Program-made: the position numbers and the translations under genes
Notes under the pieces: generated by a model
Seen by the model: only the letters and a program-made list of their open reading frames with translations
The model's database searches: none
What the model was told of the DNA's origin: nothing
In this document: piece after piece, positions 5,552 through 56,936 of the stretch
How the letters are laid out: each line of letters begins with the position of its first letter
How positions within the stretch are numbered: the first letter of the stretch is position 1
Assembly: GCA_964369365.1 (NCBI GenBank)
Contig: CAYJES010000007.1
Span: forward strand, 799 to 64,798
DNA from: an uncultured Lactobacillales bacterium
Lineage (GTDB): Bacteria > Pseudomonadota > Alphaproteobacteria > CAYJES01
Reading direction: 5' to 3'
DNA length: 64,000 nt

Positions 5552-6052
5552 ATGAAAGATAAAATGATAAATTGTGCTAAAACTCATAAAAAATTGATAG
5601 TTGTTGCTGTAATTGCATTTTTGATAGGTGCTGTATGTGTTATGGCGTCTAAATGTATGTTAGGAAATGTTAGTGCTGTTGGTAAAGTTGCTGTTGTTGA
5701 TGTTCAACAAATTGTTGCAAAATCATCAGAAATCAACGAACTTAAAACTGAACAAGAAGAAGCTGTTAAAAAACTTCAAGCTTGGTTGGATACAGTAAAA
5801 ACAGAAGTTGAAAAACAAAAAACAGAAGTTTCTAAACAAGCTCTTATCGAAAAATACAATAAAGAGTTTGCAGAAAAAAAACAACAAATCAGAGAAGATT
5901 ATGCTACTAAATTGCAAAAAATCGATGCAAATATAACAGATGTTATAGAATCAGAAGCAAAATCTCTTGGGTACAGCCTTGTTGTGTCTAAAGGTGTTGT
6001 TTTGACTGGTGGTGCTGATATCACTGATGAAATTGCAAATAAAATTAAATAA
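5552..6052 (+). CDS. OmpH/Skp family periplasmic chaperone
   Basis: Signal/TM N-terminus. VAVVDVQQIV...KEF...KQQ coiled segment. C-terminal LVVSKGVVLTGGADITDEI, typical of Skp/OmpH. Confidence 0.6.
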   Translation: MKDKMINCAKTHKKLIVVAVIAFLIGAVCVMASKCMLGNVSAVGKVAVVDVQQIVAKSSEINELKTEQEEAVKKLQAWLDTVKTEVEKQKTEVSKQALIEKYNKEFAEKKQQIREDYATKLQKIDANITDVIESEAKSLGYSLVVSKGVVLTGGADITDEIANKIK

Positions 6053-6074: not shown

Positions 6075-6103
6075 AACCGCTGGAAACCCCAGCGGTTTTT
6101 TTT
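6075..6103 (+). terminator. Rho-independent terminator
   Basis: aaccgctgg-aaacc-ccagcggtt followed by T8. Confidence 0.7.
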
Positions 6104-6127: not shown

Positions 6128-6156
6128 TTGACAAAAATAAAAGATTGTGGTAAATT
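6128..6156 (+). promoter_or_regulatory. Near-consensus sigma70 promoter
   Basis: TTGACA (6128-6133), exact 17-nt spacer, TAAATT (6151-6156). It lies 50 nt upstream of the 6206 ATG, which has an aggag RBS. Confidence 0.45.
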
Positions 6157-6205
6157 ATTTTAAATATTTATGCATTAACAATTTGATTTTGAAGGAGCTC
6201 TAAAA

Positions 6206-7321
6206 ATGACTAAAGTAAAAAAGGTTATTAATTTACAAAGTGGTGTAGAGGCCACAAAACCGAGAGATGAAAGTTTTGATTCTATTCAAAATGGAGTTCC
6301 TATTTACGCTGATAATTTGCTGGAAGCTTATACAAGGCAAATTGAGCCAAAAGACTTTTTAAAGATATGTCAGAAAAAGTATGCTGGCGGTGATATGCAC
6401 AAAATGACAAGTATGGAAGGTTTGATGTATATTTCTTCGCTTTCTGAAAACAATAAGAGCGATGAAGCAAAACAAATGCTTGTAGATTATGTAAAAGTTT
6501 ATGGAACTAAAGACATATTTAGATTCCCAAGAACTGTTGATATTGCAACAGAAATAAAAATTTCAGATAAAAATATTGAAAAGGCAAAAGTTGTTTATGC
6601 TCATCTTCAAAAAAATAGAGATGAAAAATTATTAGATAAAATGATAGAGGGTAAATCAGTTGCTATTGTTGGTAGTGCTCCTTTTGAAAAAGGAAAAGGC
6701 AATGGTCCAACAATAGATTCTTATGACATTTCAATCAGATTTAATAATTATGTTTTAAATGATGAACATAAAATTGACTATGGATCTAAAACGGATATTT
6801 TTGCAAGAAACACAATAAATGATGATGTAAAAGATAGGCCAAATGATAATTATGATTTGACCATTTTACAAGGTGATTTTAAGCGTGGACCGTTAATGTT
6901 TGAAGTAAAAGATGGTAAACAGATAGAGCATTTGGATTCTTGGCATAGAGATATTTTGGCAGGCAAAAACTATTATTCAATTGCCCCAGAAACTACTAAA
7001 AGTTTGAAGCAAGCATCAGGAATTTACCATTCTACTGCGGGTCTTGCTGTATTTTGGGATATTTTAAGATCTAAAAAAGGCCAAACAAATGATATAGCAG
7101 TTTATGGTCTAGGTCTAAGTAAAGAAGCTTCTGATAAATTTGCGGATCACTATTACGAAACAAGAAGCGCTGAAGATAGAGCAAAATATTCAAAAGGCCA
7201 TGATTTTGGTAAAGAAGCAGGGTTTATAGGTATGGTTATTGAAGATGCTGAAAAAGTGAAAAAGTACTTTAATCAAATAACTTCACCATTGGCAGTTTCT
7301 ATAGTAAAAGAAGGAAGATAA
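6206..7321 (+). CDS. Putative glycosyltransferase with a Cst-II/GT42-like (sialyltransferase-fold) core. Short paralog of the protein at 54900..56936.
   Basis: VAIVGSAPFEKGKGNG...IDSYDISIRFNNY resembles the Cst-II VIIAGNGPS...DVFRCNQFY nucleotide-sugar-binding N-terminus. A later HSTAGLAVFWDIL...VYGLGLS segment resembles Cst-II TSGVYMCAVAIALGYKEIYLSGIDF. The first roughly 120 aa (YTRQIEPKDFLKICQKKYAG...MYISSL) are shared with the paralog. Confidence 0.35.
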   Translation: MTKVKKVINLQSGVEATKPRDESFDSIQNGVPIYADNLLEAYTRQIEPKDFLKICQKKYAGGDMHKMTSMEGLMYISSLSENNKSDEAKQMLVDYVKVYGTKDIFRFPRTVDIATEIKISDKNIEKAKVVYAHLQKNRDEKLLDKMIEGKSVAIVGSAPFEKGKGNGPTIDSYDISIRFNNYVLNDEHKIDYGSKTDIFARNTINDDVKDRPNDNYDLTILQGDFKRGPLMFEVKDGKQIEHLDSWHRDILAGKNYYSIAPETTKSLKQASGIYHSTAGLAVFWDILRSKKGQTNDIAVYGLGLSKEASDKFADHYYETRSAEDRAKYSKGHDFGKEAGFIGMVIEDAEKVKKYFNQITSPLAVSIVKEGR

Positions 7322-13836: not shown

Positions 13837-14241
13837 ATGAGTGAAGAATACAATAACGCAATAAGAAATCAATTTGAAGACACTTTTATGGCAGCAGCTA
13901 AAAAAGGCGTTGATAAAAAATATGTTAAATCTCTAGAAAAAAAAGATATTGATGGTTTGTTTGATGAAGGCAAAAAAATTCTTAATCAAATAGAAAAAGC
14001 ATATAAAGTAGGTATGAGTCAAGAAGTTATAACTTCACTTGAAGGAAAACAAGGAATGGTAGCGGCATTTGCATTATTGCAATCGCACACAGGATATTAT
14101 GGTGGATATGATATGCATTATACTAAAGAAGAAGTTATGGGATGGTCTGTAAGTGGTGCTATGAGAAAAGCAAATTCAGAAGGATTACTTGTTTCTAAAC
14201 AAACAAAAAGACCATTAGATATTCAAAAAACAAGAGTATAA
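13837..14241 (+). CDS. Small hypothetical protein, tandem paralog 1
   Basis: 134 aa, no signal peptide. Clear similarity to the next ORF: N-terminal QFE..F...AK.G.D..Y.KSL.KKDI.GLF.EG.KI, central AFA.LQ, and C-terminal IQK.R. Confidence 0.5.
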   Translation: MSEEYNNAIRNQFEDTFMAAAKKGVDKKYVKSLEKKDIDGLFDEGKKILNQIEKAYKVGMSQEVITSLEGKQGMVAAFALLQSHTGYYGGYDMHYTKEEVMGWSVSGAMRKANSEGLLVSKQTKRPLDIQKTRV

Positions 14242-14310: not shown

Positions 14311-14712
14311 ATGAAAGAATTTAATGAAAAAATCTATAAGCAATTTGAAACGCTTTTTTTTGAGTCTGCTAAGAATGGTATTGATTATGCATATATGAAA
14401 TCATTGTTAAAAAAAGACATCAATGGTTTGTTCATAGAAGGTGGTAAAATTATAAAACAAACAAAAAAAGCTCATGAGCTTGGGGTGTTTATCGATGTTT
14501 TTGATGTTCTTGAATCAAGAAAGCTTATGATTCGTGCATTTGCAACGTTGCAAAATTATCAAGGATTTTGCTGTGAAAATAATATTTACATTAATAAAAA
14601 TGAATTTATAAGTTTGTCAGTTGAGAAAGCATTAAAAAAAGCTAAAGAATGTGGGGTTTTAGATATAAAACAGAAACGATTGCCTCCAAAAATTCAAAAA
14701 ATAAGAGAGTAG
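14311..14712 (+). CDS. Small hypothetical protein, tandem paralog 2
   Basis: 133 aa. Paralogous to 13837..14241 at roughly 30-35 percent identity, judged by eye. Confidence 0.5.
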   Translation: MKEFNEKIYKQFETLFFESAKNGIDYAYMKSLLKKDINGLFIEGGKIIKQTKKAHELGVFIDVFDVLESRKLMIRAFATLQNYQGFCCENNIYINKNEFISLSVEKALKKAKECGVLDIKQKRLPPKIQKIRE

Positions 14713-16064: not shown

Positions 16065-18491
16065 TTATGCCATTTCTAAATATTTTTGAACAAAGTTTTC
16101 TTCGCCAAATTCACGCATTAATTGTTCCGCTAATACAACGTGTTTACGACCAGAAGAATAAAGTTTTAGGTAAGGTCCAAGAGGTCCTAAGTTTACGTCC
16201 AAAATGACAGATTCACCGATAGCTGGACGAGATACCAAAATACCATATTTTAAATCTTTAAACTCTCTTCCGAAAATGAAATCTTTTTCACGTGGAGTTA
16301 GTCGCCAATTTTCATAATCTTCTTCCATACCTTGTGGATTTTTAAAGAAGATAACCGTTTGACACTGTCCCCTGATAACTTCGCCAAGTCCAAGGCTATC
16401 CACGATATTAGGTTGTTGGAAAGCGCATAGGAATGCTTGACGTTTTTTACGACCTTCTTGCAAACCTACGATAAAACTGTCCCTAAACATTGGGTGTTTT
16501 AACATCGGCGCAGTTTCATCAATCATAACCAAAGATGGATCACCAGTTGAGCTTGCTACTGTATTAATACGGTGCATAACATAGCTGATAACCGCTGGGG
16601 CTAGTAGTTCGTCTTCAAAAATATGGGTAAAGTCAAATGCCATAAATCTAGTGGTCATATCTAAATCATCGTTTGGTGAGTTAAATATACGTCCATATTG
16701 CTGGTCGTTAATCCAACGATAAAGCTCTCTTCTCATATGGCCTGTTGGTGAAAAACAGCTTTTATAAAGGTTTTTAAGAGTACGTTGGTTGAAATCTAAA
16801 TAATCAAAAGAGGTGGTAACCGCTCTTGCAATTTCACGTTCCGAATAAGAATCTGTTGCCATGGTAATAGATTTAATCCAACGACGTAAGAATGCCCTGT
16901 TTTCAGGAGTGTCTTGTGCTGATAATGGGTTAATAGCAGTTGCGTTTTTATCGCCATCAAAGTTTACATAAGCTCCTCCAATAGCTTTTGTAAAAATTTC
17001 AACACCTTTATGACGGTCAAAAAAGTATACACGGAGGTTGCTATGACGCATAGCTTGACCTGCTAAGAATGCTAGTAGTGTTGTTTTACCTTGACCAGTT
17101 GGACCAATAATCACAGCGTGGGCTACTGCTGCATCTTCTGTTGATACGTGGAATTGCCATTTATATGCTGTACCTGTTACAGTTCTGAATACTGCAATTG
17201 CCCCATCACCCCAGTCACTTTTTGCAAGTCCTTCTGTAGATGTTTCAAGACATAGCGCACAGCCAATCGCTCTTGATAAATATAAATAAGTTCTTGGATA
17301 TATTTCATAAGTTGGGAATTGGGCGAAGAATGAAGCTTCTGCTACCCAGCCATCTCTTACAGGAGTTACGCCATGAAGCCTAGTTAATCTTTCTACCTCA
17401 ATCTGTCCGAATTTTAACTCTTCCATACTTTCAGCAAAAACAAATAGTGTCATAGCGTACTCATGAATGGTTTGAGAACTTTCAGAAGCGCTATCCATTG
17501 CTTCTAGTACCATTGTAAATTGATCTGTGTTACCTTCTGCCACCGAAGTTGTAAATGATAATTGTCTTCTTCTGATTAAATCTGCTGCAGCCTTTGCTTT
17601 ATTTTTTGGTTTTATATTATGAAGCAGTGTTAATTCTACGTCTAATGATAGTAAATCAGCCACCATTTGTTCGTCAATATAATCCCCGCAAGAACGCATT
17701 CCCATAACAATGCCTAGTTTTTCATTCTCACCTGCAATAAATTTAATTAATCCCTTATCACCAGTAAAATGAATATAATCAGCAGTTAAAAGTCCGTTTA
17801 ATTCTGTTGTTTCTAAGTCGCCAACTTTAGGAGATGGTCTAGATAACGGACTTGCGATATTTGCAAATAAATGAAAAGGTGAAAGTTCTGGCGGAGAATT
17901 TTCATCCTCATACATTGGAGTCATGACAAATTCATCTAACATAGATTCAATAGCTATTATGCATTGTTCCAAATCTTTTTCTGCATTATCCCTATCAATA
18001 ACAGATAGAATAAGATGATGCTCATTTGTGTAAATCCTGTCTAAATTATCCTGCCATCTTTGGGCAACTTTTGATAGTAACTTATTTTCGAAACCAACAA
18101 GATTATCAACAGGAACACGTTTTCTTAAAGTTATAAATCTAGCAGTTATATTGCTTTCTGAAAGATTATCAACTACTCTCTTTTTTAAATCTAGTAAAAT
18201 TTCACGTTCTTTTGGGGCAAGTAGGGTCATGTCCTTGCCTTTTAGCTTGAACACCCTTACTATCGTATTGTCTTGGCATTCAATTGTCATTCCATCTTCT
18301 CTTAATCGTCTGAATGGAAGGAAGTCTGCTACCCTTGTTTCTCTTGGGCGGGGCAAGAAAAATGCACCTATTTTTGAAACTATTACTGCAATAAAAGCAG
18401 CTGCAGCACAAAACCCGATTATACCGATTGTTGTTTCAACTGTCGATATACTCTCAACAAATACAACATTTGCAAGTAAGCTAGGATCCAA
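16065..18491 (-). CDS. virB4: Type IV secretion system ATPase VirB4/TrbE family
   Basis: 808 aa. N-terminal TM segment. Walker A (GPTGQGKTT). Conserved VirB4 C-terminal ATPase domain. It overlaps the upstream virB3 stop. Confidence 0.85.
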   Translation of the reverse strand: MDPSLLANVVFVESISTVETTIGIIGFCAAAAFIAVIVSKIGAFFLPRPRETRVADFLPFRRLREDGMTIECQDNTIVRVFKLKGKDMTLLAPKEREILLDLKKRVVDNLSESNITARFITLRKRVPVDNLVGFENKLLSKVAQRWQDNLDRIYTNEHHLILSVIDRDNAEKDLEQCIIAIESMLDEFVMTPMYEDENSPPELSPFHLFANIASPLSRPSPKVGDLETTELNGLLTADYIHFTGDKGLIKFIAGENEKLGIVMGMRSCGDYIDEQMVADLLSLDVELTLLHNIKPKNKAKAAADLIRRRQLSFTTSVAEGNTDQFTMVLEAMDSASESSQTIHEYAMTLFVFAESMEELKFGQIEVERLTRLHGVTPVRDGWVAEASFFAQFPTYEIYPRTYLYLSRAIGCALCLETSTEGLAKSDWGDGAIAVFRTVTGTAYKWQFHVSTEDAAVAHAVIIGPTGQGKTTLLAFLAGQAMRHSNLRVYFFDRHKGVEIFTKAIGGAYVNFDGDKNATAINPLSAQDTPENRAFLRRWIKSITMATDSYSEREIARAVTTSFDYLDFNQRTLKNLYKSCFSPTGHMRRELYRWINDQQYGRIFNSPNDDLDMTTRFMAFDFTHIFEDELLAPAVISYVMHRINTVASSTGDPSLVMIDETAPMLKHPMFRDSFIVGLQEGRKKRQAFLCAFQQPNIVDSLGLGEVIRGQCQTVIFFKNPQGMEEDYENWRLTPREKDFIFGREFKDLKYGILVSRPAIGESVILDVNLGPLGPYLKLYSSGRKHVVLAEQLMREFGEENFVQKYLEMA

Positions 18492-18771
18492 GTTTCACTC
18501 CTTTTGTAGAATACATGTTTTTAGAGAATTTAGGCGATTTTCCTAATGATTTGAACATATTATCGATATGTGGTTCTTGAAATCCGTAAGAAGCAATTAT
18601 AAAATGACAAATAGCAATGCTTGCAACAAATACCAAAAAATTTATTTGAAATAATGCGAACACGATAAACATCACCGTCATTTGCAGTGACATATTAGCG
18701 ATGGCTGCAATTTGTGGCGCCCATAAAAAAGTTGGCGGCATAGCGACATTTCTGAATAAATCATCTCTCAT
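18481..18771 (-). CDS. virB3: Type IV secretion system protein VirB3
   Basis: 96 aa with an LF..V..PP-like N-terminus and hydrophobic helices. It overlaps the virB4 start by 11 nt. Confidence 0.6.
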   Translation of the reverse strand: MRDDLFRNVAMPPTFLWAPQIAAIANMSLQMTVMFIVFALFQINFLVFVASIAICHFIIASYGFQEPHIDNMFKSLGKSPKFSKNMYSTKGVKLGS

Positions 18772-24800: not shown

Positions 24801-25307
24801 GACGAAGTCGTAAAAGAAAAAGCAGGATATTATTCAGTGGCTGGAATTATTTCTGGGTCAAGAAGTGGGGTTACAAAAACAGGGAAAAAATACTTTATTG
24901 TATCGCTTGCAGATAAAACAGAATCCAAAGATTTCTTTATGTTTGGTGAGGCATTTGAAAAAAATAGAGATATGTTCGAATCGGAAAAAGTTTTGCTAGT
25001 TGAATTAAAAGGCGAAATGAAAGCCGATGACAGCGGTATAAGATACAGCATAATAAGCGTTGATGATTTGGAAAAAAGAAAAGCTGCTCTTAATGCTGAA
25101 TTTGAAATTACTATTAGCCATGATAAAGTAATTAATGAATTAAACAAGTTGCTAGATACTGTAAAAGGCGGCAAAAATGACGTGTTTATATGTTGTAATG
25201 CTTTGGGACATAAAGTAAATATGGAAATTGGAAAATATAATATCGATAAAGAATTGCGTTATAAAATATCAATTCTTGATGGTGTTGATAGCGTCGAAGA
25301 AGGCTGA
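21873..25307 (+). CDS. dnaE: DNA polymerase III alpha subunit
   Basis: 1144 aa. N-terminal PHP domain (HLRVHSGYSLLEG). Polymerase core motifs (PDFDIDF, GLLKFDFLGLKTL). OB-fold C-terminus. Confidence 0.95.
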   Translation: MTNFIHLRVHSGYSLLEGAIKVKDLLELCKKYNMPAVAITDTGNMFNGADFSVNASKDGIQPILGVQLWIKRKPTSIYEKEPEKASQLVLLVQNQQGYNNIIKLVSKSFLDMTATTEHPFIYLEDLKEYSEGLIALSGGVTGIIGSCLLSRNKEDAAENTLLLKDIYGDRFYMEIMRHGDDKEMMTEGDFLNLAYEHNIPLVATNNAFFIDRDFYEANDALICIAEKKYVSDEDRDRLTEEHYFKSSEEMIELFSDLPEAIENTVKIAKRCGFMIEKTSVMFPIYTADDMGDLSEFELMKKRAESGLVEKFGKMGEVDKEEYEKRLEYEINIINQMGFCGYFLIVSDFIMYSKQNGIPVGPGRGSGAGSLVAWCLGITDLDPLRFGLLFERFLNPERVSMPDFDIDFCQEKREKTIQYVQEKYGYDKVAQIITYGKLQAKAVIRDVGRVLQIPFPVVDKFAKKIPTKNPDNPNKPVTLKMAVDLEPELAQMINEERDIKKMYDISRKLEGLYRNASTHAAGVVIGPRPLDTIIPLYKDIRSPTPVTQFDMKWVEDVGLIKFDFLGLKTLTVIDKAVQLIEKNHGVKIDIADIPLEQKEAFELLHSAQTSGVFQLESGGMRDVLRQVKPDSLEEITAVVALYRPGPMANIPTYANRKFGREPIESIHEKLDDLLSETYGIIVYQEQVMEIAKILAGYSLGGSDLLRRAMGKKKKEEMDAQRKVFVDGCLKNEISEQKATEVFNLMEKFAEYGFNKSHAAAYALIAYQTAYLKALYPAPFMAATMTLDINNTDKLAEFKVEIDKMGIEILTPDINKSEVEFSVENGKIRYALGAIKNVGSAAMQSIIDERNENGEFKSLEDFTNRYDVHQVNRKCLENMAKAGCFDSLELNRNKIFQNIDRIINAGSNASMDRKSNQISLFGDAPVTDIIKFEACEDWTQIERLRFEQDALGFYLSAHPLDGINRALKRLKVTNLVDIDEVVKEKAGYYSVAGIISGSRSGVTKTGKKYFIVSLADKTESKDFFMFGEAFEKNRDMFESEKVLLVELKGEMKADDSGIRYSIISVDDLEKRKAALNAEFEITISHDKVINELNKLLDTVKGGKNDVFICCNALGHKVNMEIGKYNIDKELRYKISILDGVDSVEEG

Positions 25308-26231
25308 TAAAGATTGTTTGTCAGGATAAGCGATCAATAAAATTTCATAAAATAGAGTGTTATTTTCTTTTACGATTTTAAATTTGTAACCTAAGTCTAG
25401 TTTTTCAATAAAAGGCTTTATTTCAAAAAAATCTTCCCCTCTATGATAAAGAGATATCAATAAAATAGGTTTGTGTTTTTTTAATGTTTCAACTGCGCCT
25501 TTTATAACATTAAATTCAAATCCTTCGACATCTAACTTTAACAGACCTAAATTTAAATTGTTATCACTGGCAAAATCATCAATAGTTGTTATATTTGTTT
25601 CTTGAGTTGGCTTTGTTTTGTTTTTAGCGAGTAAGGTTGATCCTGGGCCTGCGATATTTATTGTTCCTGAACCTTTTTTATCACTAAGCGCCATACTAAT
25701 AACAGAAACATTATCCATATTATTCATTGCAATCGTTTCGTTTAAAAGTTTTTGATTTTTTATGGTTGGTTCAAAACAATAAATATGTTTTGGGCGATAT
25801 TCTGAAAAAACAAGGGCGCTGTCGCCTACGAATGCACCGCCATCAATGATGTCTTTATTTTTTATTTGTTCTCTGATTTTATGATTTAGAGATTTCAAAC
25901 CACAATGGTTGATAAAAACGTTGTCTTCATAACGTTTGCCAGCAATTTTGCCTTTGTACTTTTCTGGGAATGGTTTTTGATTAATTTCTTCATTGCTTAA
26001 ATAATCTTTTGGGTTAATAAAAAAATTATCGCCTAAGATATCATATGCTTTCATAAAAAGTTTGTATCGTTCAATAAACGTATTCACAGTGTTTGTAGAC
26101 TTTTCATCCAACCCAGAGATAAGCTCTTTTGTGCGAATTTCAATGTCGTTATTTTCGAAATAATTTTTAAAATCATCAATAAAAGATGCTATCATTTTAA
26201 AACGAAAAATTTGCCGTTCTGATGGGTGCAT
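25269..26231 (-). CDS. FkbM family SAM-dependent methyltransferase
   Basis: VIDGGAFVGDSALVF...CFEP...LLKLDVEGFEFNVIKGA FkbM signature. The stop overlaps the dnaE 3' end by 39 nt (convergent). Confidence 0.7.
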   Translation of the reverse strand: MHPSERQIFRFKMIASFIDDFKNYFENNDIEIRTKELISGLDEKSTNTVNTFIERYKLFMKAYDILGDNFFINPKDYLSNEEINQKPFPEKYKGKIAGKRYEDNVFINHCGLKSLNHKIREQIKNKDIIDGGAFVGDSALVFSEYRPKHIYCFEPTIKNQKLLNETIAMNNMDNVSVISMALSDKKGSGTINIAGPGSTLLAKNKTKPTQETNITTIDDFASDNNLNLGLLKLDVEGFEFNVIKGAVETLKKHKPILLISLYHRGEDFFEIKPFIEKLDLGYKFKIVKENNTLFYEILLIAYPDKQSLSAFFDAINTIKN

Positions 26232-27692
26232 TTACTCCTCCAATAGATGTTTTTCTAATACTTTTTTGATGGTTTGCATGGTTTTAACTCTTGCCCTTTT
26301 TTTGTTGTTAGTAGCAATAACAAACCAAGGAGCATATCCAGTATCGGTCAAACTTATCATATCAGAAAATGCTTCGTCGTAATTATCCCATTTATCACGA
26401 TTACGCCAATCTTCATCGGTGATTTTCCATTTTTTGTATTCGGTATCAGACCTTGCTTCGAATCTCTCTAGTTGTTCCTCTTTATCGATATACAACAAAA
26501 ATTTTATTACAATGTTATCCGAATCGGTTAGTTGCTTTTCAAATTCGTTAATTTCGTTATAACCTCTTAACCATGAACTTTCATCGCTGAAGCCTTCTAT
26601 TCTTTCCACCAATACTCTGCCGTACCAGCTTCTGTCAAATATGGTAAGAAGTTTTTGTTCGGAAAATTTGTTCCAAAATCTCCATAAATAATGGTGTTTT
26701 TTTTCATCTTCTGTTGGCGCAGATATTGGTATAATGCTGTATAATCTAGGGTTTAATGAAGAAGTTATCCTTAAAATAACCCCACCTTTGCCCGATGCGT
26801 CAGGTCCTTCGAAACATAAAATTACTTTTTTGCCCCTGTCTTCTGCTCTTGTGAAAAGTTCGTTTAATTCAGAACGTAACAATTTTATTTCTTTATCGTA
26901 TTCTTGGCGTGGTAATTTTTTTTCAAATTCTATCTCAGAAAAATCAACTTTCTTTTCAATTGGAATTATATTTTCTTTTGATAATTCTGGTGGTTTATAA
27001 AAATTACCAGATTTTATTATGTCGTCAATGTTGTTGCAAAAATTTTTTAAAGTGGTTGAAACTCTTTCGCTTCTGGTGTTATCGTTTATTATATTCCATG
27101 GCGCATATTCTTTATGAGTTTTATCAATAATATCGCTTAACGTTTCTTTTAATTCATCATAGTGTTTAAAGCTGTCGTAATCGTATTCCATCATTTTCCA
27201 ACGTAATTCTTTGTCTTCTTCAAGATAATTAAGATATTTTTCCGTGTGTTTTTTTGAAATATCAAGCCAGTATTTTAAAATGATATAACCATTGTCAGCC
27301 AAAGTTTTTTCAAATTCTTTAATTTCATTTATTTTGTTTTCGTATTCTTCTGATGAAATTTTTTTGTATGCTCTGTCGGTTAGGGGTTCTGTGTACCATG
27401 AACTAAGATAAACGCCAAGTTGTCCTGCACTAGGCAAATCCCTCCAAAACCTTCTGTACGGATTATCATTAGGAGGTAATTTTTTATCATATGCATTTTG
27501 TAAAATATTCCTTGCATTCATCCAGCTCCATAAATGGTTGAAGCTTGAATTTCTGCCGCTGCCTGAAAGCCCAGCAAGAACCATAATTACAGGAAGATTG
27601 TTTTTTGCAATATGAAGTTGCGTTTTTAATAAACAAGTCCTGATTTTGTCTTCATCTTCTTCATTAAAATCTACATAAAATAATTCGCTCAT
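26232..27692 (-). CDS. ppk2: Two-domain polyphosphate kinase 2 family protein (PAP/PPK2-like). The N-domain P-loop is degenerate.
   Basis: 486 aa with two PPK2 repeats. The C-terminal repeat has an intact Walker A (FEGPDASGKGG). The N-terminal repeat has a degenerate one (LAGLSGSGRNS). Confidence 0.8.
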   Translation of the reverse strand: MSELFYVDFNEEDEDKIRTCLLKTQLHIAKNNLPVIMVLAGLSGSGRNSSFNHLWSWMNARNILQNAYDKKLPPNDNPYRRFWRDLPSAGQLGVYLSSWYTEPLTDRAYKKISSEEYENKINEIKEFEKTLADNGYIILKYWLDISKKHTEKYLNYLEEDKELRWKMMEYDYDSFKHYDELKETLSDIIDKTHKEYAPWNIINDNTRSERVSTTLKNFCNNIDDIIKSGNFYKPPELSKENIIPIEKKVDFSEIEFEKKLPRQEYDKEIKLLRSELNELFTRAEDRGKKVILCFEGPDASGKGGVILRITSSLNPRLYSIIPISAPTEDEKKHHYLWRFWNKFSEQKLLTIFDRSWYGRVLVERIEGFSDESSWLRGYNEINEFEKQLTDSDNIVIKFLLYIDKEEQLERFEARSDTEYKKWKITDEDWRNRDKWDNYDEAFSDMISLTDTGYAPWFVIATNNKKRARVKTMQTIKKVLEKHLLEE

Positions 27693-29788
27693 TTTAATTG
27701 TTTAACCTCTCGTTTAAGTCTTGCTGTTCTGCCAGAACCGTATAATGACGGGTTTTCCATAAAAAATTCTTGGGCGCAAAATCCGCCAGATTTTACTGTT
27801 TCTCTATTGTAATTCATCTCACTATCAAGTATCCATGAATTAGCGTTATCTTTTATATTAGCATACATGATTTGCGTTAAAATTTGCTTTTTAACTTTTG
27901 TTTTTTCAATTGGAATTAATGTTTCAACTCTTTTTATCATATTTCTACGCATTAAATCTGCTGATGAAATATATACTTTTGCACTTTGCGAAGGAAATTT
28001 TTTGCCGTTGCCAAAACAATAAATTCTAGAATGTTCTAAAAATCTTCCTACTATACTTTTCACTGTAATGTTTTCGGATAAACCTTTTATTCCTGGGCGC
28101 AAAGAGCATATTCCACGAATTATAAGTTTTATTTTTACACCTGCTTTTGATGCTTTATAAAGTGCATCTATGACCACATCATCCATAAGAGAGTTTGCTT
28201 TTGCCATTATTGTTGCTGGCCTTCCAGTATTCGCGAATTCAATTTCTTTTTCAATTAATCTTATTAATTCATCGCGTAAGTCAAAAGGAGCAGTAATTAG
28301 TTTTTTAAATGGTTTTAATTCTTTTTTTGTTTCTAAAAAATCAAAAACATTATCAGCATCATTTCCTAAATCTTCATCATCTGTGAAAAATGATAAGTCG
28401 GTGTAAATGTTGGCAGTAATAGGGTTATAGTTGCCTGTGCCATAATGAACATATGATTTAATTTTGTTTTTTTGTTTTCGCCTGATCAATGATATTTTGC
28501 TGTGGAATTTATATTTTGGATGTCCGAAAATAACTTTTACTCCATGACTTTCCATGATTTTAGCCCAACCTAGATTAGCTTCTTCGTCAAAACGAGCGCG
28601 AAGTTCGATGTATGCTGTAACATCTTTGCCATTCTTAGCCGCATCCATCAATGCATACATAATAGGGGATTCTTTATTTGTTCTGTATATAGTTTGTTTA
28701 ATAGAAATTACATCATCATCATTTGCGGCTTGTTTTAAAAAATTTACAACTATTTCATATGATTCATATGGATGATGAACAAGAATGTCACCTGATTCAA
28801 TAGCTTTGAAATAATCGTTATCAAATTTTTTAACCCGTTCAGATTTTCTTGGGGCGTAATCTTTGAATAATAGTTTTTTCTTAAATGGATAGATGATTTG
28901 CCCTAAATGTCTGTATGCTAAAAAATCTGAAAAAGTTATGTCATTATCATCAAGTTTTAATTTCTTTTTTAACAATTCTATTCCGGTTTTGCTTGAACTT
29001 GAATGGATGTCAAGCAGAGTTAATTTGCCTTGTTTGCGCTTTTTAAGAGCTTCTTCAAACCATGCAATCATATCTTCAGCTTTTTCATCAAAGGCTATTA
29101 AAGTGTCTCTTATTACCGAGAAGGTGGCTAGGTGATTTGTTTGCTTGCTGTTAAATACTTTACTTGCGAATAATAAAATTAAATCCTCTACAGGAATTAA
29201 AGAAATTTTATTTTTATTGTTTGCAATAGTTACAAATCTTTTTGTTCTTTTCGGCAGCGATATAATAGAGTTTACGCCTTCTACCTCAAATAACAAATTA
29301 ATGCTGAGGTTTTCAAGAAATGGAAAATCATTATCAATTTTATTTAAAATTATAGTAGGCAAAATATCATCTATAAAAACTTTTTTCAAAATTGAAATGT
29401 CTTTTTTCTTAAGCTCGTCTTTTGATAAAATGTGAAAATTGGTTTTTGATAGCTCTTTTTTTATTTCAGAAAATGATGCATATTGTTTTTTTTGTAATTG
29501 GATTATATAGGGATAACAAAGCTTTATTTGCTCTTTAAAGCTAAGTCCATCAATCGATACATTTTCTTCATCAACTCTTTTTTCTTTTAATGATGCGAAC
29601 CTAACCATGCAAAATTCATCTAAATTAGAGCCAGAAATGCTTAAAAATCGCAATCTTTCAAGCAAGGGAAGCGTATTCTTTAGACTTTCTTCTAAGACTC
29701 TTTCATGAAATTTAAGCAGTGATAACTCTCGGTTGAAAAACCGCTTTGGCGAATATGCAAGATCTTTTTGTAAAAATTTAAATTCCAT
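27689..29788 (-). CDS. ppk: Polyphosphate kinase 1
   Basis: 699 aa. N-domain RFLSISGSNLDEF. Phospho-His region KFHSK. Two PLD-like C-domains. It overlaps the ppk2 start by 4 nt. Confidence 0.9.
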   Translation of the reverse strand: MEFKFLQKDLAYSPKRFFNRELSLLKFHERVLEESLKNTLPLLERLRFLSISGSNLDEFCMVRFASLKEKRVDEENVSIDGLSFKEQIKLCYPYIIQLQKKQYASFSEIKKELSKTNFHILSKDELKKKDISILKKVFIDDILPTIILNKIDNDFPFLENLSINLLFEVEGVNSIISLPKRTKRFVTIANNKNKISLIPVEDLILLFASKVFNSKQTNHLATFSVIRDTLIAFDEKAEDMIAWFEEALKKRKQGKLTLLDIHSSSSKTGIELLKKKLKLDDNDITFSDFLAYRHLGQIIYPFKKKLLFKDYAPRKSERVKKFDNDYFKAIESGDILVHHPYESYEIVVNFLKQAANDDDVISIKQTIYRTNKESPIMYALMDAAKNGKDVTAYIELRARFDEEANLGWAKIMESHGVKVIFGHPKYKFHSKISLIRRKQKNKIKSYVHYGTGNYNPITANIYTDLSFFTDDEDLGNDADNVFDFLETKKELKPFKKLITAPFDLRDELIRLIEKEIEFANTGRPATIMAKANSLMDDVVIDALYKASKAGVKIKLIIRGICSLRPGIKGLSENITVKSIVGRFLEHSRIYCFGNGKKFPSQSAKVYISSADLMRRNMIKRVETLIPIEKTKVKKQILTQIMYANIKDNANSWILDSEMNYNRETVKSGGFCAQEFFMENPSLYGSGRTARLKREVKQLK

Positions 29789-47596: not shown

Positions 47597-49246
47597 CTAT
47601 TTGTCAATCTTGCTATCAAAAAATTTGTTAAGAGTAAATACTCGATTAAAACCAGCAGTTTTGTTTTTTGAATCTTTTACTGCTTTATCTTCTCTTATTG
47701 TTCGTTCTGACTTTTCGATAGATAAAGAAGTTTTCATTTCTGATCTAATAGTGCTATCATTTTCTTTAGGTGTAACAAATTCATAGTTTTTATTCATTAA
47801 TGATTTAATTGTTGCCATTAATTGTTTTGGGTAATCAACAGGATATTTTATGAAATCTTTGAACGGAATCATATTAACAAGTTTTGATACGTTAATGTTT
47901 TTTAATTTTCCTTTGATAGATTCTGGCATTTCTTTTATCAATTCCGGAACTTTCTTTGTGCTATCTTTTTGGGCTTCAAAATCTTGAATCCCATCGATTA
48001 ATAATAATCCTTTTAAAATAGCCATCCTGTCTAAATCCCCAGTTTCTATAATTCCTTTGAATGCATTATGCAAATCAGGGTGGCTGTCATCTCTTGCATG
48101 GAATGTAGACGCAAAAGCGATATCATATAACTCTTTATCTGTTTTGTTGCAAATGCCAGCTTTATTCATTTCTTCAATTGCACCTTTGAAATCTTCCATT
48201 TGGGTAAGGCCTTTTAAAGAATATAAATGCCCTTGTTTTGCAGCATCAACCAACGCCATAGCATGCCCATGTGCAATAGCCATAATATTCAATTGAAAAT
48301 CATTTATAAAGTTTTCGTCCTCGTTTAATGAAGATGTTTTTTGGTTAAATAAAAAGTTTTTAGCATGGATTTGAGAAATTACAGTAAAATCTACGTATCT
48401 TTGATCATCAACATAAGTCATGCCGTAGTCTGTTTTTGTTGCATCAACATTAATAACAGCATCATTTGTAGGGACATATGCACTAAGATAATTGCTATCT
48501 GTTTCTTCTTCTATAATATTTATAACAGGCACGCCATGTTTATATAAATTACGAAGCGCTTCATCATGTTCAGGATTGTTTCTTATTCTGTTTAAAGATT
48601 GTTCAAATAATCCTTTGTCACCACCCATAAAATCTTTAATAATGTCGTTTTTAAGCCCAGTAATAGCAGGAATAGGCATGTCTGGGGAAAGGGTTTCAAT
48701 AGCTACTTTTGCTGGTAATTCAATGTTTATGTTGTCGTGAAGCGCAGAAAAACTTCCTGAAAGAGCCCCTACAAGTAAAAAACCACCAACCAAACCAAGC
48801 ATTTTTTTCTTATGCTTTTGCATAAAGCTTTCATCTAATCCTTTTGCTTTTGCTCCAGATGTTAAAACTTTGCCTTTTAATGTGGTTGCAAGAACATCTA
48901 TTACATTTTCTTTATCTGTAGATTGTGGTTCTATGCCTTTATTTGTATATTTGCCTTTATATAAATCAATAATGTTAATAGCATCAGGGTGTTTTGATGG
49001 TGATAAGAATTTTTTATCACCTTTTACTCTGTCATGATTTAGAATTTTAGATAATGCTTCTGATAAAGCTGGGGTTGTTTTTTTATAGTTTAAAGCAAAT
49101 ATAACCAAAGCAGATTTGTGTCTTTTTGATGCATAAATGTTTACAGATGCATCATCAATTCCCTTTAATACTCCGTCTAAATTACCATTTTCGCAAGCTG
49201 TAAAAAAGTTTTCAGTTGTGTGATCTGAATAGTTGTGAGCGCTCAT
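47597..49246 (-). CDS. Large orphan protein with a central TM helix (hypothetical; candidate secreted or effector-like)
   Basis: Start placed at MSAHNYS (49246), which has an aggaga RBS. The ORF track extends to 49294. Possible single ankyrin-like N-terminal unit. TM helix MLGLVGGFLLVGALSGSFSAL. Lys-rich C-terminus. Confidence 0.45.
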   Translation of the reverse strand: MSAHNYSDHTTENFFTACENGNLDGVLKGIDDASVNIYASKRHKSALVIFALNYKKTTPALSEALSKILNHDRVKGDKKFLSPSKHPDAINIIDLYKGKYTNKGIEPQSTDKENVIDVLATTLKGKVLTSGAKAKGLDESFMQKHKKKMLGLVGGFLLVGALSGSFSALHDNINIELPAKVAIETLSPDMPIPAITGLKNDIIKDFMGGDKGLFEQSLNRIRNNPEHDEALRNLYKHGVPVINIIEEETDSNYLSAYVPTNDAVINVDATKTDYGMTYVDDQRYVDFTVISQIHAKNFLFNQKTSSLNEDENFINDFQLNIMAIAHGHAMALVDAAKQGHLYSLKGLTQMEDFKGAIEEMNKAGICNKTDKELYDIAFASTFHARDDSHPDLHNAFKGIIETGDLDRMAILKGLLLIDGIQDFEAQKDSTKKVPELIKEMPESIKGKLKNINVSKLVNMIPFKDFIKYPVDYPKQLMATIKSLMNKNYEFVTPKENDSTIRSEMKTSLSIEKSERTIREDKAVKDSKNKTAGFNRVFTLNKFFDSKIDK

Positions 49247-49328
49247 AAAAATATCTCCTGATATATATAATTTTTTATAGTTGTATTCTAACAAAAATTA
49301 TCACTTTTGTCAACTTATTTGTTGTTTT

Positions 49329-52957: not shown

Positions 52958-53719
52958 TTATAACCCTAGACCTTTTGCCTTTATCATATCATAAGCCATT
53001 TTATACCATTGGCTGTTTGAAAAATTGTGTCCTAAAACAGCTGCGGTTTTAAGGGCATCGTCATGCATTTTTAAAGCAATGTAGATTTCAACTAAACGAT
53101 ATAAAGCTTCTGGTGTGTGTGAAGAAGTTTGATAGGTGTCTACAACAACATTAAAACGGTTCATTGCACCAATATATTCGTTACGGTTTAAATAATATCT
53201 GCCTACATTCATTTCTTTGCCAGCAAGATGATCTTGGGTTAAATCATATTTTAACTTTGCATCATTTGCATAAAGAGAAGTAGGGAATCGCATATAAACT
53301 TCTTTCAAAGCTTCTCTTGCGTTTGTGGTTGCGTTTTGGTCGCGTTCAATGTCCGATATTTGTTCGTAATAACATAAAGCTTTTAAATAATATGCGTATG
53401 GCACTTCGCTGCTGCCTGGGTGAAGTTCTAAAAATCTATCCAAAGCAAGAATTGCATCATCATATTCTTGATCTTGATACGATGCTTCACCAGCTAAAAG
53501 TTGAGCTTTATTAGCGTATTCAGAATATGGATATAGTCTTTCGACTTCATCAAATAGTTTAGCTGCCGTTTTATATTGTCTGGCCTCTAATGCATTTTCT
53601 GCTTTTGTAAATAATTCTCTTGCCGGAGCATCTTTATTATTAACCAACTCGTCTTTAGGGGAAGAAGAGCATGAGATTAAAAATACAGAAAAAAAGCCAA
53701 TAAGTAATAATTTTAACAT
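52958..53719 (-). CDS. bamD: Outer membrane protein assembly factor BamD
   Basis: Lipoprotein signal (ISCS) plus TPR repeats. Conserved position upstream of recN. Confidence 0.8.
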   Translation of the reverse strand: MLKLLLIGFFSVFLISCSSSPKDELVNNKDAPARELFTKAENALEARQYKTAAKLFDEVERLYPYSEYANKAQLLAGEASYQDQEYDDAILALDRFLELHPGSSEVPYAYYLKALCYYEQISDIERDQNATTNAREALKEVYMRFPTSLYANDAKLKYDLTQDHLAGKEMNVGRYYLNRNEYIGAMNRFNVVVDTYQTSSHTPEALYRLVEIYIALKMHDDALKTAAVLGHNFSNSQWYKMAYDMIKAKGLGL

Positions 53720-53776: not shown

Positions 53777-54742
53777 TTATTCACATAAAACTTTTGCTTC
53801 TTGGTAATTTTTTCCTAAAACCATTTCGTTCATGTCAATGATTTCATAGTTTTCAGGGTTAGAAAAAAGTTCTTTTAATGCGAGGTTGCTAAGCATATGA
53901 CCTGATTTATGACCTTTATACTTTCCAATTAAAGTATATCCTGCAGAATACAAATCGCCAATAGCATCAGTGATTTTATGTTTTATAAATTCATCTTCGT
54001 AACGAAGGCCTTCTTTATTTAAAATTTCCATACCGTCGATAACAATACCAGTTTTAAGGCTGCCGCCTTTTATAAGTCCGTTTTGGCGTAAATATTCAAC
54101 TTCTTGTAATAAGCAAAAAGTGCGGGCTTGGCAAATTTCAGTTTTAAAAGATTTTAAATCAAGTTGATATGATAGTTTTTTATCTGCTGCTATTGTATTT
54201 GGATAATCTAGATAAAAATCAAACTCTAATCCAGATTTAGCAGGTTCGAGAGTTACATAAGTGTCATTATGTTCCACTTTTATAGGTTTTAATATTTTTA
54301 CAGCTTTTCTTGGGGCGTTTTGTTCTTTTATTCCTGCGCATTCTATTAAAAATAAAAATGGAGAAGCACTACCATCTAATATAGGAAGTTCAGGACCAGA
54401 CACCTCTACAATGGCATTAGTTATACCCATAGCATGAAAAGATGCCATTAAATGTTCAATAGTTGAAACAGTAACGCCTTCTTCGTTCGAAAGACAAGTG
54501 CACATTCTTGTGTCTGAAACATTTGAATATAAAGCTTGAACAACATTATCTTTATTTAAAACATCTGATCTAATAAAACGAATCCCAGTATCGACATTAG
54601 CTGGTTTCAAAGTTAAAGAAATTCGAGCCCCAGAATGAAGCCCCACCCCAGTACAAGCAACAGTATCAGCTAAAGTTTTTTGTGCATATACAAAAGTACT
54701 AGAATTACCATTAGATTCCATAAAATTATCGTTCCTAAACAT
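53777..54742 (-). CDS. lpxC: UDP-3-O-acyl-N-acetylglucosamine deacetylase
   Basis: TGVGLHSG...ISLTLKPA N-terminus. Conserved HKxxD and SGH motifs. The true start may be the internal Met 7 codons downstream. Confidence 0.9.
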   Translation of the reverse strand: MFRNDNFMESNGNSSTFVYAQKTLADTVACTGVGLHSGARISLTLKPANVDTGIRFIRSDVLNKDNVVQALYSNVSDTRMCTCLSNEEGVTVSTIEHLMASFHAMGITNAIVEVSGPELPILDGSASPFLFLIECAGIKEQNAPRKAVKILKPIKVEHNDTYVTLEPAKSGLEFDFYLDYPNTIAADKKLSYQLDLKSFKTEICQARTFCLLQEVEYLRQNGLIKGGSLKTGIVIDGMEILNKEGLRYEDEFIKHKITDAIGDLYSAGYTLIGKYKGHKSGHMLSNLALKELFSNPENYEIIDMNEMVLGKNYQEAKVLCE

Positions 54743-54899: not shown

Positions 54900-56936
54900 A
54901 TGGTAAAAATTTTTACAAGTGGTGAAACAATATCAAATTCTTCTCATGAACAATATGAAAGTATTCAATGTGGGATTTTTATAGGTGCTGAAAGTTTATT
55001 ACAAGCATATATAAGGCAAATTGATCCAAAAGAGTTTCTTAAAATATGTGAAAGAAATTTTGCAGGCAAATCAATAAATGAAATCCCAAGCATGGATGCT
55101 TTGATGTATATTTCGTCTCTTATTGACAATAAAAAGGATTTTTTGGCAGAAAAAATGCTGTCTGAATATATTAAAACTTATGATACAAGGGATATTTTCA
55201 GATTTTATAAAGTAACAAAACTTGCAAGCCAAAAAGGTATTTTAGATGATAATATCGAAAAAGCTTTATATGTTTATGGCGAACTTAAAAATGCAAGAAA
55301 TGAAGGCCTGCTTGCAAAAATGCTTGAAGGCAAAAAAATAGCAATAGTAGGTAGCGCCCCATCTGAAATTGGGAAAGGTCATGGTGAAGAAATAGATAGT
55401 TATGACCATTGTATTAGGTTTAATAATTTTAAAATTTTACCCGAGCACGAGGTCGATTATGGTTCGAAAATTGACATATGGGCCAGAAATACGGTAAATG
55501 AAGATGTTGTTGATAGAAAAGATGAAGACTTTTCAATAATAATATTACAATCTGATTTTGAATTTGGGCCTGTAATGTATGACCATATGGATATTATGTA
55601 TCGTGATTTAAAGCAAGGTAAAAAATACTATTCTATTGAAATGGCGACAATAAAAGAATTAAAAATAGCTTCTAGAGTATATCCTATTTCTGCTGGATTT
55701 ACTGTGTTTGGAGAGATATTAAGAATTAAAAAAGGTGATACTTCATCATTTGGATTGTTTGGTTTTGCTCTTGATGATGAGGCAGCAAGTAAATTTGGAG
55801 ACCATTATTTTGAAGTAAGAAATGAAGATGAAATAAAAAATGATTTAATAGGATGTTTTTTCACTGAAGAAGCTGGATTTATGGCTTACGCACTTAAAAA
55901 ATCACAAGAATTAAGTCGTATATGGGAAAGAAGAAATGCTGTTATTGTAAATAATCCAAAACAAAAAGGAGCTGGAGATGGGGTTATAGCAATATGTGAA
56001 GCGTTAAGACGACATATCCCAGATTTAGAATATAACTTTGTTGAGACAGCTGATGAAGTAACAGAAAAGCCATATATAGTTTGGAGTGTTGGTCCTGATA
56101 CTACTGATATTGCAATGGAAATCATAAAAAAACACAATCCTGATTTTGTGTTTGGTATGAAAGACCCATATGATGATGCTGATGTTGAAGAATATGTATT
56201 ATATAGTAAAATTATAGATACAATGGGAACTTTACAAACAGCTAAAGTAAATGTAGCACGTCCTGATTTAGTTTACTTTCCAGATTTTCCTCCATTTTCT
56301 ATGACTAAATATGGGCTTGGGCAATTTAAGTATGCTCCTGTCTTAGATATTTTTAATCCTGATTTATTGATTTCAATTGGTGGAGCTGATCCTTATACAA
56401 ACCGTGATGTAGTAGAAGGAGATATTGATAATTTATTAAAATTAGCTCAAAATTTTAAAGAAAATATCGGTGGAAAAGTTGCATTTTTAACTAGTAATAG
56501 AACAAATGATAAGGTGATAGAATATCTTAAATCTAAAAAAGATAAACAAGACGCTTTGTCTGATTTTAAAAGTGCAACGCTATATTATGATGATAAAGAA
56601 TTTAAAGATTTAAAAAGTGTTTATCAAGCATTTATAATAAACAGTAATTATTTTGTTCAAACAGATGATAGTTTATCAATGATGGCAGAATTAACGGTGA
56701 GAGAGGGTAAATTAGTAATATATCAAACATTAGGAACTGACAGCTCAACTCAACGTAGAATTAATGTTGCAAATTCTGTTGTTGAATCTGGAAATGCTAT
56801 AATTGTAGATGAAAATATTATAAATTCAGATGATAAAAATGAAATATTCAAAAAAGTAGAAAATTCAAAATCGTTAGAAGGAGTGATAGATAGAAAAATA
56901 GCAAGGATGTTGTACGATATAACAAAAATTAAATAA
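54900..56936 (+). CDS. Two-domain putative glycosyltransferase: Cst-II/GT42-like N-terminal module (paralog of 6206..7321) fused to an ELM1/DUF1022-like GT-B-like C-terminal module
   Basis: The N-terminal 370 aa align with the 6206 ORF (KKIAIVGSAPSEIGKGHGEEIDSYDHCIRFNNF...VDYGSKIDIWARNT). The C-terminal part (ISIGGADPYTNRD...KVAFLTSNRTNDK...QTDDSLSMMAELTVREGKLVIYQ) resembles ELM1-family proteins. Confidence 0.35.
   Translation: MVKIFTSGETISNSSHEQYESIQCGIFIGAESLLQAYIRQIDPKEFLKICERNFAGKSINEIPSMDALMYISSLIDNKKDFLAEKMLSEYIKTYDTRDIFRFYKVTKLASQKGILDDNIEKALYVYGELKNARNEGLLAKMLEGKKIAIVGSAPSEIGKGHGEEIDSYDHCIRFNNFKILPEHEVDYGSKIDIWARNTVNEDVVDRKDEDFSIIILQSDFEFGPVMYDHMDIMYRDLKQGKKYYSIEMATIKELKIASRVYPISAGFTVFGEILRIKKGDTSSFGLFGFALDDEAASKFGDHYFEVRNEDEIKNDLIGCFFTEEAGFMAYALKKSQELSRIWERRNAVIVNNPKQKGAGDGVIAICEALRRHIPDLEYNFVETADEVTEKPYIVWSVGPDTTDIAMEIIKKHNPDFVFGMKDPYDDADVEEYVLYSKIIDTMGTLQTAKVNVARPDLVYFPDFPPFSMTKYGLGQFKYAPVLDIFNPDLLISIGGADPYTNRDVVEGDIDNLLKLAQNFKENIGGKVAFLTSNRTNDKVIEYLKSKKDKQDALSDFKSATLYYDDKEFKDLKSVYQAFIINSNYFVQTDDSLSMMAELTVREGKLVIYQTLGTDSSTQRRINVANSVVESGNAIIVDENIINSDDKNEIFKKVENSKSLEGVIDRKIARMLYDITKIK

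Follow-up and report, generated by a model that had tools for sequence, protein, structure and literature searches.

Two paralogous bacterial GT29 proteins of an uncultured bacterium, one fused to an ELM1/KdoT-type glycosyltransferase module

A stretch of 64,000 nucleotides from an uncultured bacterium (deposited as Lactobacillales and placed by GTDB in the Alphaproteobacteria, CAYJES01; assembly GCA_964369365.1, contig CAYJES010000007.1, positions 799 to 64,798), referred to here as the window, harbors two open reading frames (ORFs) for related putative glycosyltransferases (GTs). The shorter ORF (6206..7321, forward strand) encodes a protein of 371 amino acids (aa) and the longer one (54900..56936, forward strand) a protein of 678 aa, at exactly the positions where an initial annotation, made by reading the DNA, had placed two copies of a shared domain. 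BLASTP aligned the two proteins over 348 aa (E = 1e-107), with 46% of the positions identical and 67% positive, and the Rossmann-like motif IVGSAPS...G..IDSYD..IRFNN quoted in that annotation was seen in both copies. The C-terminal extension described for the long copy is likewise present and comprises 333 additional residues, the SMMAEL...IYQ stretch included. No third copy of either module was detected within the window by tblastn. The copies are mutual closest relatives, with 46–47% identity to each other compared to ≤38% for anything else found in public data, indicating that they are paralogues that arose by duplication within this lineage. Neither protein has a transmembrane segment or a signal peptide.

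Glyco_transf_29 (PF00777) was the sole Pfam match of the shared domain at E ≤ 1, scoring 41.4 bits for the short and 23.5 bits for the long copy at a gathering cut-off of 23; the one further Pfam match at this threshold was PF06258, in the C-terminal half of the long copy. Single-sequence searches against the sequences of the Protein Data Bank (PDB) gave weak matches, every one of which was a GT29 enzyme. A word-index homology search yielded only one relative; it never returned the 678-aa protein itself, although this protein is part of the collection and even when its own C-terminal half served as query, and negatives from this search can therefore not be read as absence. Exhaustive profile searching, on the other hand, recovered 2,654 cluster representatives at E ≤ 1e-3, including 196 at E ≤ 1e-30. 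When a family profile made from 82 of these relatives was run against the PDB sequences, it matched porcine ST3Gal-I (E 1.9e-20), ST6GalNAc-II (E 4e-18), ST6Gal-I (E 5e-16), and ST8Sia-III (E 1e-15), and the alignment brought all four sialylmotifs into register with those of the animal GT29 enzymes. Structure comparison, finally, revealed a GT-A-variant sialyltransferase fold, with comparison figures of 15.0, 13.7, 13.3, and 12.5 for GT29 structures as against 9.2 for an MptE-like kinase, 8.5 for the GT42 enzyme Cst-I, and 7.0 for Maf.

The initial annotation had likened the domain to the Cst-II-type lipooligosaccharide sialyltransferases of family GT42. The part of this claim concerning the sialyltransferase fold was borne out, and Cst-I and Cst-II of Campylobacter jejuni indeed have a related GT-A-variant fold and a similar N-terminal core for the binding of cytidine monophosphate (CMP). 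The family assignment was not: at E ≤ 1, neither a GT42 Pfam family nor any GT42 chain among the PDB sequences was matched, irrespective of whether a single sequence or the family profile was used as query, and the closest structural neighbor was a GT29 rather than a GT42 enzyme. The assignment to GT42 was thus ruled out, and we attach next to no probability to it. An unrelated fold does not apply either, given the higher figures for GT29 than for the MptE-like kinase; no match to an MptE-like domain (PF01973; Maf/MptE-like flagellin nonulosonate transferases) was found. Pfam, profile, and structure comparisons all give GT29, and both proteins are members of the bacterial branch of this CAZy family.

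Bacterial GT29 sialyltransferase-like proteins have been described previously (Petit et al. 2018, Sci Rep, PMC5811610). Most of them are alphaproteobacterial and encoded in polysaccharide loci, and their function has not been established biochemically (PMC5811610). Like these proteins, the two window copies possess PF00777 and four sialylmotifs, and they lack both a transmembrane anchor and the disulfide Cys pair; the corresponding Cys positions of motifs L and S are occupied by Val and Ile/Phe instead, and there is no hydrophobic anchor. Since all bacterial GT29 proteins are reported to be likewise devoid of the conserved disulfide Cys and the anchor (PMC5811610), this feature divides the bacterial from the eukaryotic branch and does not exclude membership. 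The window copies differ from the other bacterial members in that they form a small branch of their own and carry Ser in the VGN element of motif L, and in that one of them is without the catalytic His and continues into an ELM1-type module. To animal GT29 enzymes (ST3Gal-I, 2WNB/2WNF; ST6GalNAc-II, 6APJ; ST6Gal-I, 4JS1; ST8Sia-III, 5BO8) they are only 14–19% identical. Unlike those, they have neither Golgi type-II topology nor the disulfide, they possess a TPR-like N-terminal region, and their donor is probably not CMP-N-acetylneuraminic acid.

The sialylmotifs of the short copy were examined in the alignment with the animal enzymes, and conservation was counted in 151 family domains. Motif L (VAIVGSAP...IDSYD.SIRFNN...DYGSKTD) aligns with its counterparts in ST3Gal-I, ST6GalNAc-II, and ST6Gal-I, and no or next to no variation was seen at A153, V155, G156, G167, I170, D171, D174, R178, N180, D191, Y192, and G193. 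The Asn of VGN, present in 140 of the 151 domains, is replaced by Ser in both window copies (Ser157 in the short one). The core of motifs L and S, which is expected to bind the donor, is kept in both proteins, except for the VGN Asn. Motif S corresponds to p(S/T)tG...YGF of ST3Gal-I and ST6GalNAc-II, with G279 and G301 being invariant. The His of motif III is found in 134 of the 151 domains. In the VS motif, which aligns with vHdgdfE of ST3Gal-I, the Glu is conserved in 141 domains. The VS His is the catalytic base of GT29 enzymes (PMC10225777), and H332 is predicted to take this role in the short copy.

The two proteins had initially been regarded as orphan GTs, a status that was discarded after the exhaustive profile search. 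Many of the 2,654 representatives are fused to other GT modules or are encoded within polysaccharide loci. Common fusion partners are GT2, GT8, DUF4422, GT4, MptE-like, or pyruvyl-transferase modules. A homologue in a metagenome-assembled genome (MAG) of the Gastranaerophilaceae is located between genes for GT2, GT8, and a KpsC/KpsS-type (PF05159) protein, relative P0006 has a GT2 gene alongside, and a relative on a Pseudosulfitobacter plasmid lies within a polysaccharide cluster and bears the RefSeq name 'glycosyltransferase family 29 protein'. The company kept by the family thus points to a role in the assembly of glycans.

The cluster of the Gastranaerophilaceae MAG (JAVBNU010000064.1, L002:4518-13186) displays a further feature, a basic motif of about 25 aa that occurs in nearly every GT encoded there, in a terminal position or between modules, and also at the N-terminus of P0002. 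It has the general form (I/V)FS(I/V)KN..xHK...(I/L)G(I/L)K(I/F)K(I/V)(K/R). The GT29-like protein, for example, has it N-terminally (SIFSIKNENFHKVLTIGGIKFKIRNK), a GT2 protein of 720 aa internally (RMFSLKNQGHHKIIRTFGLKIKVKRKK), and a GT2 protein of 361 aa at its end (ILGIKIKINKK). This motif, which is without counterpart in the two window copies, may serve these proteins as a common tag by which they associate with the membrane or assemble into a complex.

The C-terminal module of the long copy (residues 346–678) matched PF06258 (Mito_fiss_Elm1, cut-off 27) with 27.7 bits, just over the cut-off, when searched alone and with 25.6 bits, below it, as part of the whole 678-aa protein, and its model showed a GT-B fold with two Rossmann-like domains. 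Both results agree with the earlier suggestion that the extension is an ELM1-like GT-B module. Relatives of this module are standalone proteins of 325–361 aa with 39–43% identity and P0158, a protein of 595 aa with 48% identity. PF06258 is listed for four of five of these in precomputed annotation; on rescanning, P0158 scored 46.0 bits, P0155 36.7 bits, and P0154 22.4 bits, the last below the cut-off. [quoted passage not shown]

P0158 (Logan SRR22455133 contig, L007:360-3771) is itself composite: an N-terminal ELM1-type domain is followed by a C-terminal module of about 270 aa without Pfam or NCBIfam match. The gene adjoins those for a histidine phosphatase and KdsB. As the partner module is a different one, the ELM1-type subfamily apparently recombines with different partner modules.

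A function has been assigned to an 'ELM1-like' protein in Acinetobacter baumannii, where KdoT (A1S_2903) acts as CMP-Kdo:Kdo2-lipid A KdoIII transferase (JBC 2025, PMC12856342). KdoT is an inverting GT-B enzyme; its SRRT motif is invariant among homologues, R180 being required and R179 dispensable, and the homologue of Rickettsia rickettsii complements an A. baumannii mutant (PMC12856342). The family is hence also present in an alphaproteobacterium. The module of the long copy resembles KdoT in its borderline PF06258 match, in its GT-B fold, and in a candidate S-x-R-T loop that has the second Arg at a similar position. The loop in question, T531-S-N-R-T535, lies in the model between a strand (527–530) and a helix (537–546), behind the strand that opens the second Rossmann half, and S532-N533-R534-T535 is located 188–189 residues from the domain start as compared to 179–180 in KdoT. 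In the subfamily alignment, its counterparts T186, S187, R189, and T190 are invariant. From this we infer that T-S-N-R-T is a candidate equivalent of the SRRT donor-binding motif and that the required Arg has apparently been kept. The association with genes for lipopolysaccharide (LPS) or Kdo synthesis is a further likeness, with lpxC next to the fused gene and kdsB near that of P0158. In contrast to KdoT, the module is not a standalone protein.

The pairing of a GT29 with an ELM1-type module was not found elsewhere. None of the best 150 of the 2,654 GT29-profile relatives contained the C-terminal module (phmmer, E ≤ 10), and the six relatives of that module are either standalone or, in the case of P0158, fused to an unrelated one, with no GT29 fusion among them. 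A second example was obtained neither from genome contigs scanned with the GT29-domain alignment, nor from metagenome contigs scanned with the ELM1-domain alignment, nor from plasmids searched by tblastn with the whole 678-aa protein. No GT29 gene was seen next to the standalone ELM1-like relatives on the short contigs examined. Within the limits of these searches, the novelty ascribed to the fusion thus holds. What is new is the GT29 plus ELM1-type architecture; bacterial GT29 proteins, ELM1/KdoT-type transferases, and multi-module GT29 enzymes have all been published. An example of the latter is the GT29-GT107 protein of the Escherichia coli K6 capsule, a proposed maker of poly-Kdo (bioRxiv 10.1101/2025.08.07.669119; Nat Microbiol 2026, PMC13171606). 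Like the 678-aa protein it combines GT29 with a module of a Kdo-transferase family, and a CMP-ulosonic acid is the proposed donor for both of its modules. Unlike here, the partner is GT107 (KpsC-type, a retaining beta-Kdo transferase) and the gene is part of a capsule locus.

The GT29 module of the 678-aa protein retains motifs L, S, and III (HYFE at residues 302–305) as well as Glu324 of the VS motif, but Cys319 occupies the position of the catalytic His. Hence, the catalytic set expected for the domain is complete in the short copy only. The VS His column of the 151 domains comprises His in 138 cases, 8 gaps that are due mostly to truncated sequences, Leu and Pro in 2 cases each, and a single Cys, that of the long copy. 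The TGT codon of Cys319, read directly from the DNA, is two substitutions away from a His codon, which renders a single sequencing error unlikely. With the catalytic His lost and the other conserved positions intact, this module would either be inactive yet substrate-binding or employ an altered mechanism.

As one possibility, it could be a dead pseudo-enzyme, so that only the ELM1-type module is active and the protein is an enzyme of the KdoT type in which a former GT29 domain has been reused for binding or as a scaffold. The unique Cys at the place of the catalytic base speaks for this, as does the score of the long copy, which barely passes the Pfam cut-off. On the other side, motifs L, S, and III and Glu324 have been kept at 46% identity to the intact copy, indicating continued selection on the nucleotide-sugar site, and the thiolate or a neighboring residue could serve as base. 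We regard a dead GT29 module as a serious possibility that nonetheless falls short of being probable. It is not exclusive of the explanation that we favor below, of which it is a refinement.

The immediate surroundings of both genes (Table 1) modify the earlier statement that neither lies in an LPS locus. No multi-gene glycan cluster is present around either gene; however, lpxC and bamD are found beside the long copy, and an skp/OmpH-like gene precedes the short one. The cytidylate-kinase-like gene that converges with the gene for the 678-aa protein also gave an NCBIfam (d)CMP kinase score of 56 bits, which is under the cut-off. A functional link of this kinase to the fused transferase is speculative; since CMP-sugar transferases release CMP, such a link is conceivable, but the arrangement may be coincidental.

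The gene for the short copy is separated from the skp/OmpH-like gene by a hairpin terminator (6075-6097) and is preceded by a GAAGGAG ribosome-binding site (6191-6197). A promoter-like site, reported earlier as a near-consensus promoter, is well placed between the two. The frequency of such sites, however, is not above chance, with 13 in the AT-rich region compared to 11.1 expected from shuffled sequence, and the promoter is therefore plausible by position only. The adjoining gene for a Gly-rich membrane protein of 136 aa was found as previously described: its ATG follows 2 nt after the TAA stop codon of the short copy (7319-7321), and its Shine-Dalgarno sequence, GAAGGAAG, is located inside the end of the upstream ORF. 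Given this 2-nt spacing, the two genes are probably co-transcribed. The 136-aa protein had no Pfam match and only sub-threshold NCBIfam matches (E ≥ 0.09).

Table 1. Positions of the two paralogues, their motifs and modules, and neighboring features in the window.
Feature	Position	Strand	Remarks
Short paralogue, 371 aa	6206..7321	+	Residues ~38-147 all-helical, TPR-like; ~148-346 GT29-type catalytic domain
Sialylmotif L, short copy, residues 152-197 (VAIVGSAPFEKGKGNGPTIDSYDISIRFNN...DYGSKTD)	6659..6796	+	CMP-sugar binding core, predicted by alignment
Sialylmotif S, short copy, residues 275-302 (HSTAG...VYGLGL)	7028..7111	+	Aligned with ST3Gal-I and ST6GalNAc-II
Sialylmotif III, short copy, H315-Y-Y-E318	7148..7159	+	Aligned with HYWE (ST3Gal-I) and HYFE (ST6GalNAc-II)
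Sialylmotif VS, short copy, H332-D-F-G-K-E337	7199..7216	+	Aligned with ST3Gal-I
Long paralogue, 678 aa: N-terminal module (residues 1-345)	54900..55934	+	TPR-like helical region and GT29-type domain
Codon TGT of Cys319	55854..55856	+	Takes the place of the catalytic His of GT29; the VS motif reads G-C-F-F-T-E-E
C-terminal module, residues 346-678	55935..56936	+	ELM1/KdoT-type (PF06258) GT-B glycosyltransferase domain
Candidate SRRT equivalent, T531-S-N-R-T535	56490..56504	+	T-S-x-R-T invariant in subfamily alignment
lpxC (lipid A biosynthesis)	53777..54742	-	Divergent neighbor of the 678-aa gene, 157 bp away; Pfam LpxC 327 bits
bamD	52958..53719		Just beyond lpxC; Pfam YfiO/BamD 162 bits
Cytidylate-kinase-like gene (PF13189)	56993..57655	-	Convergent with the 678-aa gene; Pfam Cytidylate_kin2 130 bits
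skp/OmpH-like periplasmic chaperone gene	5552..6052	+	Precedes the short copy; OmpH (Pfam) 40 bits at a cut-off of 32.4
Promoter-like site, TTGACA-17 nt-TAAATT with upstream TG	6128..6156	+	After the terminator
Small membrane protein, 136 aa	7324..7734	+	Three hydrophobic segments, 10% Gly, singleton cluster

We consider it probable that both proteins are cytoplasmic inverting CMP-ulosonic-acid transferases, the sugar probably being Kdo, that act on the LPS or another surface glycan of the organism itself. A cytoplasmic location fits the absence of a signal peptide, a transmembrane segment, and the Golgi disulfide Cys pair. In each protein, a TPR-like helical N-terminal region precedes a GT-A-variant domain whose expected ligand is a 2-keto-3-deoxy (ulosonic) sugar activated by CMP. 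CMP-Kdo is the most likely donor, a CMP-nonulosonic acid being the alternative, and transfer would most likely be to the LPS core of the bacterium itself or to another of its surface glycans. Among the possible sugars Kdo is the most parsimonious, as CMP-Kdo has to be made in any case by an organism with LPS. That GT29 members can use a donor other than CMP-N-acetylneuraminic acid is suggested by the plant enzyme RCKT1/MGP2, which has been implicated as an inverting CMP-beta-Kdo transferase for rhamnogalacturonan-II (PMC11288761); here too, Kdo and not sialic acid is the likely transferred sugar, in this case in the Golgi and onto pectin. The 371-aa copy, with its full catalytic set, is predicted to be an active transferase that is co-expressed with the small membrane protein. 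The C-terminal module of the 678-aa protein probably uses CMP-Kdo to add Kdo to the inner core of Kdo2-lipid A, as do A. baumannii KdoT and the Rickettsia homologue. Its His-less GT29 module might lengthen this glycan through an altered mechanism or serve, without catalysis, to bind the substrate or hold the enzyme in place.

Several observations weigh against this explanation. Since no bacterial GT29 member has been characterized biochemically in the literature searched, the donor is an extrapolation. Even the short copy, with Ser in place of the VGN Asn, may bind its donor atypically. The match of the C-terminal module to PF06258 is marginal and also partial, covering model positions 145-243 of 304 only, and its loop reads S-N-R-T, so that the first Arg of the motif invariant in the published KdoT homologues is an Asn. 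PF06258 moreover includes the A. baumannii outer-core transferases GtrOC1, 14, 19, and 22, whose donors are unknown (PMC10327509). Because of the marginal match and this breadth of the family, a KdoT-like activity is not guaranteed. Finally, both genes lie outside any multi-gene glycan cluster, and adjacency to lpxC is weak evidence in a small AT-rich genome.

Alternatively, the proteins could be transferases for nonulosonic acids (sialic, pseudaminic, or legionaminic acid) that decorate the capsule, the O-antigen, or a protein of the cell surface, for instance flagellin, in which case the TPR-like N-terminal region would recognize a protein acceptor, as in FlmG. However, no gene for nonulosonate synthesis or for flagellin is visible within the 64-kb window, the catalytic domain of FlmG is of the GT-B and that of Maf of the MptE-like type, neither of which matches the shared domain, and the family of the fusion partner, the kdsB gene beside that of P0158, and the adjacent lpxC all favor Kdo and LPS. 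We therefore think nonulosonate transfer improbable, though it retains some weight.

The initial annotation had further proposed that the proteins might modify host glycoconjugates. As eukaryote-like enzymes, possibly acquired from a host, they would have to be exported, for example by a type IV secretion system (T4SS). GT29 is best known from eukaryotes, and a VirB4/CagE-type gene (16065..18491) is present in the window, the GC content of which is 33%. Against this, the nearest relatives are all bacterial and typically encoded in polysaccharide loci or fused to GT modules, identity to the animal enzymes is low, a signal peptide is lacking, and the fusion partner belongs to a family of LPS-core enzymes. 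In the published phylogeny, bacterial GT29 proteins are basal to, and not derived from, the eukaryotic ones (PMC5811610). A role as host-directed effectors is thus very unlikely, and recent transfer from a eukaryote was ruled out on the basis of the bacterial nearest relatives and the 14–19% animal identity.

If the two proteins are CMP-Kdo-type transferases, they might act together. A bolder version, to which we give little credence at present, is that they build an unusual ulosonic-acid branch on the inner core of lipid A, either an oligomer of Kdo or a Kdo-nonulosonate. The 678-aa protein would then be a 'Rosetta stone' that links the bacterial GT29 clade to Kdo transfer of the KdoT type, and its GT29 module would work without the canonical His, by means of Cys319, by substrate assistance, or by holding the acceptor without catalysis. 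This would represent the first function of a bacterial GT29 protein and a new mechanistic variant of the family, whereas two ordinary LPS-core transferases would be a matter of routine annotation in a lineage that is under-sampled. Since the description of bacterial GT29 proteins in 2018, no function has been assigned to them experimentally in the literature searched, and the view that the sialyltransferases of eukaryotes stem from a proteobacterial enzyme depends largely on them. The KdoT family, in turn, was shown to comprise an LPS inner-core CMP-Kdo transferase only in late 2025. The fusion of the two yields a hypothesis that can be tested cheaply, namely that bacterial GT29 handles CMP-Kdo-type donors on LPS or surface glycans, and the occurrence of an intact and a His-less GT29 module in one genome provides a built-in comparison for loss of catalysis or change of mechanism.

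Several other features of the window were recorded. The VirB4/CagE-type gene (reverse strand) encodes a T4SS ATPase of 808 aa (Pfam CagE_TrbE_VirB) and suggests a T4SS in this organism; no further T4SS genes were visible near it. A 96-aa ORF that overlaps it upstream (18481..18771, reverse strand) is, by its appearance, presumably VirB3-like. The gene order includes a Tim44-like domain protein (Pfam), followed by genes that we take, from their translations read by eye, to encode SecB, RecN, and LigA. Together with the BamD-LpxC pair, the VirB4-type gene, and the low GC content, this suggests an under-sampled AT-rich alphaproteobacterium; every protein checked formed a singleton cluster. An ORF of 565 aa (47597..49294, reverse strand), located between small heat-shock-like ORFs and ligA, had no Pfam match at E ≤ 1e-4. 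One tRNA is the only RNA gene in the window. Two tandem paralogous ORFs (13837..14241 and 14311..14712, forward strand) encode proteins of 134 and 133 aa with clearly similar N-termini, NQFEDTFMAAAKKGVDKKYVKSLEKKDIDGLF and KQFETLFFESAKNGIDYAYMKSLLKKDINGLF. On the reverse strand at 25269..29788, a gene for an FkbM-family methyltransferase (Pfam Methyltransf_21) is found directly downstream of a gene for a PPK2 protein with two domains (Pfam); the third member of this unusual trio, an ORF of 699 aa, was read by eye as what we assume to be PPK1. In glycan clusters, sugars are frequent substrates of FkbM methyltransferases, one of which is also encoded in the GT29 cluster of Pseudosulfitobacter (L013).

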